From: an uncultured Eubacteriales bacterium | GTDB taxonomy: Bacteria; Acidobacteriota; Aminicenantia; Aminicenantales; Aminicenantaceae | Length of the DNA stretch: 64,000 nt | Direction of reading: 5' to 3' | Assembly (NCBI GenBank): GCA_964456985.1 | Contig: CAYWDH010000008.1 | Location: 14,243-78,242 of the forward strand | Part shown: positions 61,479-62,922 of the stretch, piece by piece | Layout of the letters: each line of letters opens with the position of its first letter | Position numbering within the stretch: the first letter of the stretch is position 1 | Program-made: the position numbers and the translations under genes | Notes under the pieces: model-generated | Told to the model about the DNA's origin: nothing | Databases searched by the model: none | Seen by the model: only the letters and a program-made list of their open reading frames with translations

Positions 61479-61507
61479 TTGACAATTTGAAATTTGTTCT
61501 ATATATT
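61479..61507 (+). promoter_or_regulatory. near-consensus sigma70-like promoter for the small peptide gene
   Basis: TTGACA (61479-61484), a 17-nt spacer, TATATT (61502-61507). The inverted repeat AATCCA/TGGATT (61514-61545) lies in the leader. GGAGGG RBS at 61550-61555. Confidence 0.55.
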
Positions 61508-61564
61508 CAAATCGAATCCATAAGAAAATAAGCAAAATTTGGATTGACAGGAGGGAAATTAGTT

Positions 61565-61789
61565 ATGCAAAAAGATATCGAGACCATTATCGACAAAGTT
61601 TGTGCCTTTGTTAAGGAAGTTCCTATCGAAGATCCTGACTGGAAAATTCATCAAAATGATCTGATTGAAGACCTCAAAGAGTTACTTGAAATACTGACGG
61701 GGCGTCAAATTATTGGAGTGAGACCCCCATGGTGCATTGGAGATGTCGTTAAATATCCACCGCCATTTAGGACCTATGAAAACAAGTAA
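61565..61789 (+). CDS. 74-aa peptide, candidate RiPP precursor
   Basis: MQKDIETIIDKVCAFVKEVPIEDPDWKIHQNDLIEDLKELLEILTGRQIIGVRPPWCIGDVVKYPPPFRTYENK. An acidic helical N-terminal region of about 50 aa is followed by a Pro/aromatic-rich C-terminus. Good RBS. The stop lies 7 nt before the ATG at 61796, next to the radical SAM gene. Confidence 0.6.
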   Translation: MQKDIETIIDKVCAFVKEVPIEDPDWKIHQNDLIEDLKELLEILTGRQIIGVRPPWCIGDVVKYPPPFRTYENK

Positions 61790-61795
61790 CAAAGG

Positions 61796-62922
61796 ATGCC
61801 GGAATATCGATTTTTGAAAAAGAAAATTCCTCTATTGATTACATAGACAAATCCTTCAAATTCAATAATTTTACTTTTTATATAACGGAAGAGTGTAACT
61901 ATGCGTGTTCTTACTGCTACCAAAAAAGAAGAAAACGCAGACTGAAAATTTCATCCATTCAAAATACTATCGATTTTTTCACTCCTTATTTCACAGATTC
62001 CCTCAACATCAGCTTCTATGGTGGCGAGCCCCTTTTAGCTTTTGACTCTATTGAGCAAACCCTCGAATATTTAGAAAAGAACCTTCGACCAGGCCGATCC
62101 CTATCGTATTCATTGACCACGAACGGAAGCCTCTTCACCAGAGACATTCTGAGTATTCTGAATGAATTCCACTTCAAGCTTCTGTTGAGTTTTGACGGAT
62201 ATTCGCAAAACAAAACCAGGAAAGAAAACAGTTTTGAGTCATTGGTGAATGTTATCGAAACCATAAAAACCTATCCTCATATTGAATTGAGCACACAGAG
62301 TGTCTTTGTACCAGAAACAGTGAGTCTTCTTTCAGATTCCATCGAGTTTATCGTTCGTGCTGGAGTCAAATCCGTGGATTTTAATCTGGATTACATCAGC
62401 CCTTGGGATCAAAGGGATTTGAGGTATTTTGAGGAGGAATTGAAAAAAGTGCGGAAAATGGCCCTAGAGCATTATGAAAGGAAAGAAAATATTCCAGTGG
62501 CTTTTTTAAACAAATCAGATTCATACGGCATTTCGGTCTGTGAAGGGGGGAAGGAGAATATGGTCCTTGTTCCGGATGGTTCCCTCTGGGGATGTTTTCT
62601 TTTGTTTGATTATGCCAGTTTTAAAGGCGATGAGTCTTTAACCAGTACTTACAGTTTTGGTTCCATTGAGGACTTCAAAAAAAAGCATAAAGTGACCTAT
62701 CCACAAATACGGAAAAATTATTCTCAGATCCGCTTGGACAGGTGTTATACGGATAAAAGTCCGTGCATCAGATGCTTGGATCTTCTTAGATGTACGCTCT
62801 GTCCTATTGCGGCCTGTTTTGGGAGTCCTGATATGTGGAAAATACCTCAATGGGTGTGTGAGATCAGGCGAATTTTTACCAGAGAGAATAAGGTCTTCTG
62901 GAGTCAGATCGATTCGGGTTGA
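61796..62922 (+). CDS. radical SAM / SPASM-domain peptide-maturase-like protein (start codon unresolved; possible frameshift)
   Basis: CX3CX2C = CNYACSYC at 61894-61917, then FYGGEPLL, TTNGSL and SFDG. C-terminal auxiliary-cluster Cys pattern: CEGGKENMVLVPDGSLWGC ... CIRCLDLLRCTLCPIAAC. The enzyme frame is open from 61780 but has no ATG/GTG/TTG before 62113. ATG 61796 is in another frame. Confidence 0.75.

Follow-up and report, generated by a model that had tools for sequence, protein, structure and literature searches.

Gene organization of the locus

The 64,000-nucleotide (nt) stretch of DNA analysed here (contig CAYWDH010000008.1; hereafter, the window) has a G+C content of 41% and belongs to an uncultured Aminicenantes-like bacterium; the homologs that carry source names come from metagenome-assembled genomes (MAGs) of Candidatus Aminicenantes or Acidobacteriota. 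The subject of this work is a group of three genes at the end of the window. The first, at 61565-61789 on the + strand, encodes a precursor-like peptide of 74 amino acids (aa) that evolves under purifying selection and contains a conserved core. The second, at 61843-62922 on the same strand, encodes an enzyme of the radical S-adenosylmethionine (SAM) superfamily with a predicted SPASM fold, and comprises about 359 codons if the start is the ATA discussed below, with the TGA stop at 62920-22. The third, on the - strand and convergent to the enzyme gene, is represented by the 3' third, encoding a tetratricopeptide repeat (TPR) region, of a kinase gene of ~1030 codons (62943-64000) that runs off the window end, its stop codon separated by 20 nt from that of the enzyme gene.

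A sequence-only reading of the window had singled out the peptide and enzyme genes as a candidate pair of the kind that yields ribosomally synthesized and post-translationally modified peptides (RiPPs). The 74-aa open reading frame (ORF) that it described is present with the sequence it gave, and the motifs CNYACSYC (Cx3Cx2C, at 61894-61917), GGEPLL and TTNGSL lie, as it had it, in a single open frame ending at 62922. The convergent gene, which it took for one encoding a 'TPR protein', proves to be the C-terminal third of a Ser/Thr kinase gene and a conserved partner of the enzyme.

A conserved peptide-enzyme pair and a rare peptide family

The peptide gene is located directly upstream of the enzyme gene in all nine lineages recovered with enzyme identity of at least 50% (range ~50-85%), namely, the window itself and L005, L007, L008, L009, L126, L140, L141 and L129, and the genes flanking the pair vary from locus to locus. 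The adjacency of a short ORF that is kept across lineages is the generic signature of a RiPP precursor and its maturase, and, as far as comparative genomics goes, the peptide and the radical SAM enzyme form a genuine, conserved pair; the possibility allowed for in the sequence-only reading, that peptide homologs might turn out to be unlinked to radical SAM genes elsewhere, is thus not borne out. Next to enzymes of ~40% identity, small Cys-bearing ORFs occupy the same position as the peptide gene and share its build, with a helical N-terminus and a Cys-containing C-terminus, and the one in L143 retains an FIQEVP..DP motif. An extension of the peptide family to these ORFs was attempted and rejected, given the lack of a significant profile match. 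No PqqD-like gene or profile match, that is, no RiPP recognition element (RRE), was detected in the module by Pfam and NCBIfam searches. In L129, the 50%-identity lineage, genes for TldD/PmbA-type peptidases (L129:1211-3984), enzymes of the type that process the microcin B17 leader, directly precede the peptide gene; neither the window nor any of the other loci has them.

Judging from its pattern of substitutions, the 74-aa ORF is a real gene under purifying selection, with pairwise ratios of nonsynonymous to synonymous substitution rates (dN/dS) of 0.19-0.39 against the window. Residues 1-51 (61565-61717) make up a helical hairpin 'leader', and residues 52-74 (61718-61786) the core, VRPPWCIGDVVKYPPPFRTYENK, with the invariant Cys57 encoded at 61733-61735 and Tyr64-Pro65 at 61754-61759. 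In the AlphaFold2 (AF2) model of the peptide (mean predicted local distance difference test score, pLDDT, 81), helices span residues 2-18 and 24-46, and the C-terminal 25-28 residues are extended. All 14 members of the family share an N-terminal motif of the type F-[IV]-x-[ED]-V-P-x-x-D-P-x-W and a C-x6-[F/Y]-P core motif, with a Pro directly before the Cys in each; of the two Cys residues of the peptide, one is conserved, and the other, the N-terminal Cys13, is not kept outside the close clade.

The family is very rare. A word-index search of 5.8 billion clusters recovered six homologs with 68-97% identity, a profile search widened the family to ten clusters, and an exhaustive HMMER profile search of 1.84 billion representatives retrieved only seven small proteins of 66-77 aa. 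The peptide has no family match in Pfam or NCBIfam and no sequence relationship to any curated precursor family, in agreement with the earlier failure to place it by eye in a named family.

Class and predicted fold of the enzyme

By both profile and motif, the enzyme is a member of the radical SAM superfamily: its only Pfam matches are Radical_SAM (PF04055; 50.4 bits against a gathering threshold of 29.5, E = 3.6e-13) and Fer4_12 (24.8 against 22). The top NCBIfam matches are all to peptide maturases, namely, PapB (NF047865; 127.5 bits), CcpM (94.8), the CXXX-repeat family (76), with which the enzyme aligns end to end, and the GG-Bacteroidales family (72). The PapB score does not confer family membership, the cut-off being 340, and those for the SCIFF maturase (TIGR03974; 57.3 bits, cut-off 425) and the anaerobic sulfatase-maturating enzyme, anSME (TIGR03942; 45.3 bits, cut-off 349), fall short by even more. 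Profiles of cyclophane maturases score 43-54 bits. The peptide, for its part, shows neither the six-Cys-in-45 pattern of SCIFF nor the C/S-x-P/A-x-R target motif of sulfatases (its core has C-I-G-D-V), and conserved sulfatase genes are missing from the neighborhood. The clustering with anSMEs, which the sequence-only reading had listed among the outcomes that would refute its RiPP assignment, is accordingly not what is found, the best matches being peptide maturases and, in structure, the thioether synthase CteB.

The AF2 model of the enzyme (pLDDT 95.4) predicts a SPASM fold that follows a partial TIM barrel. In full-length Foldseek comparisons, the closest structures are CteB (template modelling score, TM, 0.78), anSME (0.73-0.75) and ChlB (0.73), and TigE and SuiB are recovered as well. 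The Cys-rich C-terminus noted in the sequence-only reading is present and forms a SPASM-like domain (62539-62859) in which seven Cys residues are invariant across 63 aligned homologs, in the pattern C-x12-G-x4-C ... C-x2-C-x5-C-x2-C ... C. This is the seven-Cys pattern of SPASM domains, with x2 at a position where x3 is usual, and the seven residues suffice for two auxiliary clusters. Two details given earlier call for correction: the first auxiliary motif has x12 rather than x14 before the Gly, and, of the proposed C-x2-C-x5-C-x2-C-x4-C, the first four Cys are invariant but the last is not conserved in the family. Since query residue 10, counted from ATA 61843, aligns with CteB residue 99, the enzyme has no N-terminal recognition domain; it begins ~15 residues before Cx3Cx2C. 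The predicted fold fixes the class of the enzyme, not its chemistry.

Proposed modification of the peptide

The 74-aa product is probably the substrate of the adjacent enzyme. The N-terminal helical hairpin with its F-[IV]-x-[ED]-V-P-x-x-D-P motif would serve as the recognition or leader part, which the enzyme, having no RRE, would have to bind directly, and the unstructured C-terminal segment would be the part that is modified. Abstraction of a hydrogen atom by the enzyme would then lead to one intramolecular cross-link within the core, most likely a single thioether between Cys57 and a carbon at or near Tyr64 that would close an eight-residue ring. The Cys and the aromatic-Pro pair exactly six residues later are the sole residues invariant in all 14 cores, and a thioether is favoured because the Cys is the one invariant core side chain and because both PapB, the best profile match, and CteB, the best structural match, are thioether-forming.

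A different product, either a cyclophane or another C-C/C-O link from Trp56 or Tyr64, or else conversion of Cys57 to formylglycine, seems somewhat unlikely. Triceptide, streptide and darobactin-type enzymes do form cyclophane or other C-C/C-O links, ChlB, SuiB and anSME are all close structural neighbours of the enzyme, cyclophane-maturase profiles do match it, if at 43-54 bits, and the aromatic residue at C+7 is invariant. The scores for PapB (127), CcpM (95) and the CXXX-repeat family (76) are, however, higher, and the latter two families act on Cys-rich precursors; the Cys is invariant in every core, whereas Trp56 is absent from P0129, P0134 and P0136; and a formylglycine target motif is lacking.

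The convergent kinase and its replacement in distant loci

The TPR region encoded in the window is 79% identical to residues 683-1035 of the 1035-aa kinase of L001, and it is from this ortholog, rather than from the window, that the architecture of the kinase was read: a Zn-ribbon (9-30), a Pkinase domain (64-318), a single hydrophobic helix (343-363) and TPR repeats that extend to the C-terminus. If the topology suggested by the single hydrophobic segment holds, the TPR region would be outside the cytoplasm. The kinase domain matches TIGR03903 at 134 bits (cut-off 706), and residues 382-645 of the ortholog, past the transmembrane helix, match TIGR04510 at 99 bits (cut-off 400). A kinase ortholog is convergent to the enzyme gene in every sampled locus with enzyme identity of at least 39%, its end either within a few tens of bases of the enzyme stop or overlapping it, and its identity to the L001 kinase (92, 86, 82, 70, 56 and 40-42%) falls roughly in step with the identity of the enzyme to that of the window. 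No other neighbor of the enzyme gene is conserved as widely as the kinase gene.

At 36-38% enzyme identity, the Ser/Thr kinase is replaced by genes for very large sensor proteins with Reg_prop/Y_Y_Y domains: a histidine kinase on the same strand that overlaps the 3' end of the enzyme gene by 11 nt (L137:6073-9930), a SpoIIE phosphatase encoded directly after the enzyme gene in the same orientation (L138:6412-9669), and a SpoIIE-type sensor ~2 kb upstream of the enzyme (L139:1-2781). A small Cys-bearing ORF is still present in two of these three loci; none adjoins the enzyme in L139. The kinase is probably a functional partner of the pair that would either sense the modified peptide via its TPR region or control the operon.

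The fact that the kinase is conserved over the widest range also fits an alternative scheme under which the enzyme acts on another protein, such as the kinase region past the transmembrane helix, much as anSMEs modify sulfatases, and the 74-aa protein is an accessory factor, either a chaperone-like adaptor that replaces the RRE or a regulator. The enzyme resembles anSME in size, in the lack of an RRE and in structure (TM 0.73-0.75), and the 74-aa protein includes a confidently folded hairpin and is conserved along its full length. Nevertheless, we find such a scheme unlikely: the anSME profile yields 45 bits against 349, the peptide is devoid of the C/S-x-P/A-x-R motif, invariant Cys and aromatic-Pro residues in an unstructured tail are substrate-like, the small protein has no PqqD/RRE profile match, and the type of sensor switches in the distant loci, yet the small Cys-bearing ORF persists in two of the three.

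An enzyme gene without a canonical start codon

Although the enzyme frame is free of stops from 61780 onward, no ATG, GTG or TTG codon occurs in it before TTG 62113, downstream of both Cx3Cx2C and GGEPLL, and eight lineages lack any such codon upstream of Cx3Cx2C. The sequence-only reading had placed the start of the enzyme gene within 10 nt of the peptide gene. The codon in question, ATG 61796, was rejected as the enzyme start: it is in the frame of the peptide, not that of the enzyme, and runs into a stop (61844-46) after 16 codons. It opens instead a 16-codon upstream ORF (uORF), MPEYRFLKKKIPLLIT (61796-61846, + strand), which starts 6 nt after the peptide stop and the TAG of which overlaps an ATA in the enzyme frame, so that the sequence reads ATAG. 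A short ORF that has a canonical start and ends in the overlapping TAG is found in seven of the eight lineages; L009 lacks the uORF, and there the peptide TAA is followed by one base and then by ATA.

Two non-canonical codons (61834-61845, + strand) stand out by their conservation as candidate starts. ATA 61843-45 is invariant in all eight lineages, and an ATT (61834-36 in the window) or ATC is found three codons upstream of it in seven of the eight; in most lineages, a Shine-Dalgarno (SD)-like element, GAAAGGGAAG, lies 7-10 nt before the ATT or ATC. Of the Ile codons in these genes, ATA is the least used (20%), and not one of the 10 alignment columns that are Ile throughout consists of ATA only. 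The dN/dS of the enzyme gene is 0.08-0.23 both before and after the first canonical start, despite dS reaching saturation, and for the 85 codons that precede TTG 62113, it is 0.08-0.20, as in the rest of the gene; therefore, this stretch is translated and the enzyme gene is not a pseudogene. In five close lineages, the corresponding ratio of nonsynonymous to synonymous differences (pN/pS) in the enzyme frame is 0.96 upstream of ATA and 0.10 downstream of it, and the uORF region is thus not part of the enzyme.

A conserved near-cognate codon that coincides with the onset of constraint and overlaps an upstream stop is the pattern expected of non-canonical AUH initiation, and it suggests near-cognate initiation (at ATA or ATT) coupled to upstream translation. 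The enzyme would be translated from ATA 61843 or ATT 61834 by ribosomes that probably arrive after finishing the peptide ORF and then the 16-codon uORF, and such coupling would tie the synthesis of the enzyme to that of its precursor and keep enzyme levels low. Starts further upstream, at ATA 61804 or ATT 61810, or a slip at TTTTTGAAAAAG, were considered and excluded as a general mechanism because, in L008 and L141, a TAA closes the enzyme frame until three codons before ATT-GAT-NNN-ATA, and because pN/pS in this region is 0.96. A frameshift fusion of peptide and enzyme was rejected as well: joining the two frames would take a shift of -1 in the window but of +1 in L009, which no single mechanism would explain.

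Production of the enzyme by a programmed -1 shift, ribosomal or transcriptional, from the ATG-initiated uORF, or else by switching of homopolymer length, has to be weighed against near-cognate initiation. The enzyme frame is indeed -1 relative to the uORF in seven lineages, some of which carry slippery heptamers (T TTT TTA in L141, T TTA AAA in L007 and AAA AAG in the window), and in P0015 the TTG of the uORF is fused in frame to the enzyme. These heptamers are, however, lineage-specific or absent, with no slippery site common to all lineages; the stop in L008 and L141 confines any shift to the last 7 uORF codons, where L008 has no heptamer; L009 has no uORF to shift from; no conserved, potentially stimulatory RNA structure was detected at the junction (the alignment fold is at -4.5 kcal/mol, with essentially no covariation); and the enzyme-frame pN/pS of 0.96 across the uORF region is not that of a translated N-terminus. 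Frameshifting as the general route to the enzyme therefore appears improbable. P0015, which comes from a population nearly identical to that of L141, reads LKGKAFFIDHIDKTF..., and its fusion implies a run of T7 where L141 (1864-1890) has T6 (in T TTT TTA); the difference may reflect polymorphism of the homopolymer, phase switching or an error of assembly.

Public gene calls in the enzyme clade are only 225-315 aa long, and most of them show no radical SAM domain match. Those for P0007, P0009-P0012 and P0017 begin 30-120 codons late, and the call for the gene of the window itself, P0010, is only 225 aa; these calls start downstream of Cx3Cx2C because the clade has no ATG, GTG or TTG start. It is highly improbable that these truncated calls and the absence of a canonical start from eight lineages denote a decaying pseudogene that has lost its start codon, with the peptide functioning alone or with the kinase, given that the frame of ~360 codons is intact in all eight lineages, at dN/dS of 0.08-0.23, and that every catalytic and auxiliary Cys is retained.

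A putative peptide-modification module linked to a sensor kinase

Taken together, these observations lead us to regard the locus, with moderate confidence that extends to the proposed chemistry and mode of translation, as a three-gene module of an uncultured Aminicenantes-like bacterium that consists of a precursor peptide, a radical SAM enzyme and a kinase. The comparative evidence indicates that the peptides probably represent a new RiPP-like family, with the Cys as the probable site of a cross-link and with a probable tie to a sensor kinase. The RiPP-like pair of the sequence-only reading is, in this respect, supported, with amendments that concern the start codon, the basis of the SPASM assignment and the kinase. 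A more specific scenario can be envisaged, if rather doubtfully, in which the module is a hitherto unnoticed peptide-signalling system of Aminicenantes/Acidobacteriota-type bacteria: the cyclised peptide would be the ligand of the co-inherited receptor kinase, the maturase would be made only via the relay uORF and an obligate AUA start, and, in distant relatives, beta-propeller histidine kinases or SpoIIE phosphatases would take the place of the receptor kinase.

Several observations weigh against the interpretation of the locus as a peptide-modification module. The enzyme reaches the cut-off of no curated maturase family. The SPASM profiles (PF13186 / TIGR04085) give no match when the full-length enzyme is compared with Pfam, SPASM is absent among the 25 best of the 63 NCBIfam families that the full-length enzyme matches, and the isolated C-terminal 137 aa show no SPASM match in Pfam or NCBIfam; the assignment in the sequence-only reading thus stands on the Cys pattern and the predicted fold, which agree with it, because the sequence profiles do not detect the C-terminus. 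The structural neighbours of the enzyme span thioether, formylglycine, cyclophane and Lys-Trp chemistries, so that the type of cross-link is a guess from the conserved residues of the peptide. The core of the peptide is at least as conserved as the 'leader', unlike in most RiPP families, the peptide profile misses the small ORFs that adjoin the 40%-identity enzymes, and the module has no conserved RRE, protease or exporter. Lacking a signal sequence, the peptide has no known means of reaching a TPR region located outside the cytoplasm. As for translation, selection on the uORF frame is ambiguous, with pN/pS of 0.42 as compared with 0.38 for the third frame, the window carries a degenerate version of the SD-like element (GAAAAAGAAAA), and model bacteria initiate only inefficiently at ATA or ATT.

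Should the existence of the module be validated, it would add to the known diversity of RiPPs both a new precursor family and a new clade of RRE-less SPASM maturases, from a phylum for which no cultured producer of peptides of this kind is known. A connection between peptide modification by radical SAM enzymes and Hanks-type receptor kinases would be established as well, which would suggest that the peptide serves in signalling rather than in antibiosis. Moreover, given that most of the truncated gene calls lack the radical SAM domain, clusters of this type would escape antiSMASH, RODEO and other tools that depend on gene calls and Pfam matches, and the conserved ATA/TAG overlap would be a clean natural test case of near-cognate reinitiation in bacteria.

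Regulatory region and neighboring genes

The peptide gene is preceded by a conserved intergenic region (61336-61565; 230 nt) with a mean column identity of 89% over six lineages, far above that expected from the synonymous sites of the flanking genes, which differ by ~40-50%. Two promoter-like sites are arranged in it back to back on the two strands (61440-61507): TTGACA-17-TATATT on the + strand (61479-61507), which the sequence-only reading had already pointed out and which matches the consensus at 11 of 12 positions, and TTGACA-16-TAGACT on the - strand (61467-61440), with the -35 boxes of both forming an inverted repeat (61454-61467 / 61479-61492). Both hexamers of the + strand site are unchanged across the six lineages; such sites are not enriched in the region as a whole (6 found against 5.8 expected from shuffles). 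The ribosome-binding site proposed earlier, the SD-like GGAGGG at 61549-61554 on the + strand, is also present, 10 nt upstream of the peptide ATG, and is kept in homologous loci. The 5' half of the intergenic region (61336-61440) contains no obvious promoter element and no Rfam match, and an Rfam scan of 60900-62000 yielded none.

The divergent transcript starts with a gene for a helical lipoprotein of 164 aa with the lipobox LTISC (60841-61335, - strand), which has no family match in Pfam or NCBIfam and adjoins the peptide gene in the close clade only. The 3' end of this gene is overlapped by 17 nt by a gene for a class I SAM methyltransferase (60093-60857, - strand; Pfam Methyltransf_11, E = 3e-22; best NCBIfam match to the DVU_1556 family, 95 of 155 bits). 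The two genes are kept together only in the sub-clade with enzyme identity of at least 62%; the methyltransferase gene is absent from L129 and from more distant loci.

Further upstream, the window contains at least nine paralogous genes for DUF5128 (6-bladed beta-propeller) lipoproteins (38655-39836, 43255-49401 and 56202-60079), one of which (44431-45936) is a fusion with TPR repeats. This array flanks the module in the closest relatives, L001 and L002, and not in more distant loci. A DUF5128-like gene appears to be split into three + strand ORFs (58548-59003, 59025-59708 and 59756-60079) and is probably a disrupted paralog; at the matching position, L001 has an intact DUF5128 gene, a 74-aa ORF and a ParE toxin gene. 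Three further paralogous genes (40397-43117, 49556-52090 and 53101-55674) encode proteins of ~850-900 aa with duplicated MacB_PCD/FtsX permease domains, and the L001 ortholog of the third is preceded by a gene for a PadR regulator. The MacB-type permeases and the DUF5128 lipoproteins were considered as a possible exporter or target and rejected, as they are not kept with the module beyond the closest relatives. A role in antiphage defense was likewise rejected, PADLOC having returned only generic viperin-core and kinase-domain matches. A literature search on radical SAM peptides in Aminicenantes/Acidobacteriota and on associations of SPASM enzymes with kinases found nothing relevant.

Comparison with known systems

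Among characterized systems, PapB, a ranthipeptide maturase that acts on PapA/freyrasin-type precursors, is the best profile match (E = 6e-37 over residues 26-308 of a 376-aa query), and the two systems are alike in that a radical SAM enzyme with a Cys-rich, C-terminal auxiliary-cluster domain is encoded beside a Cys-containing precursor. The score is, however, far below the family cut-off, and the peptide described here has one conserved Cys in C-x6-[FY]-P, whereas PapA contains repeated Cys/Asp motifs. The closest solved structure is that of CteB, the SCIFF thioether synthase (PDB 5WGG/5WHY; Foldseek E = 4e-19 over ~365-380 columns), which is also the best phmmer match in the PDB and shares the SPASM fold that, in CteB, holds two auxiliary clusters. 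Residues 1-98 of CteB, its RRE-type peptide-binding domain, have no counterpart in the enzyme described here, which is well short of the SCIFF maturase cut-off (57 bits against 425), and the peptide is not a SCIFF.

The anSMEs (PDB 4K36-4K39) are similar to the enzyme in size, in the absence of an N-terminal recognition domain and in possession of a full SPASM domain, but differ in all the features of profile score, gene neighborhood and target motif detailed above; several homologs are named 'sulfatase maturation enzyme AslB' by JGI, a superfamily-level label. ChlB (PDB 9GM3), a multiple cyclophane synthase as listed in PMC12912966 (ref. 52), is of comparable size (~375 aa), likewise has no separate RRE, and was crystallised with its precursor leader bound, an earlier instance in which the catalytic domains themselves bind the leader; nevertheless, its sequence identity to the enzyme is only 19-20%, and the match to cyclophane profiles is low. 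The maturases of three-residue cyclophanes differ in that the conserved core residue here is a Cys rather than part of an aromatic-x-x motif.

The association of a large signalling protein that contains TPR-type repeats with a peptide-modification gene is reminiscent of the TIGR04510 ('putative peptide modification system cyclase') and TIGR03903 ('TOMM system kinase/cyclase fusion protein') families, the link of which to peptide-modification systems we presume from the family names alone. The kinase scores far below the cut-offs of both, it has no cyclase domain, and its partner is a radical SAM protein. Finally, with regard to translation, the conserved AUH as the only possible start and its overlap with the preceding stop (ATAG) resemble the AUU-initiated infC and the ATGA/TAATG coupling, respectively. 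ATA starts are, to our knowledge, very rare; in the case described here, unlike in these precedents, an apparent ATA start would be shared by a whole clade of biosynthetic enzyme genes and would receive its ribosomes from a relay uORF.

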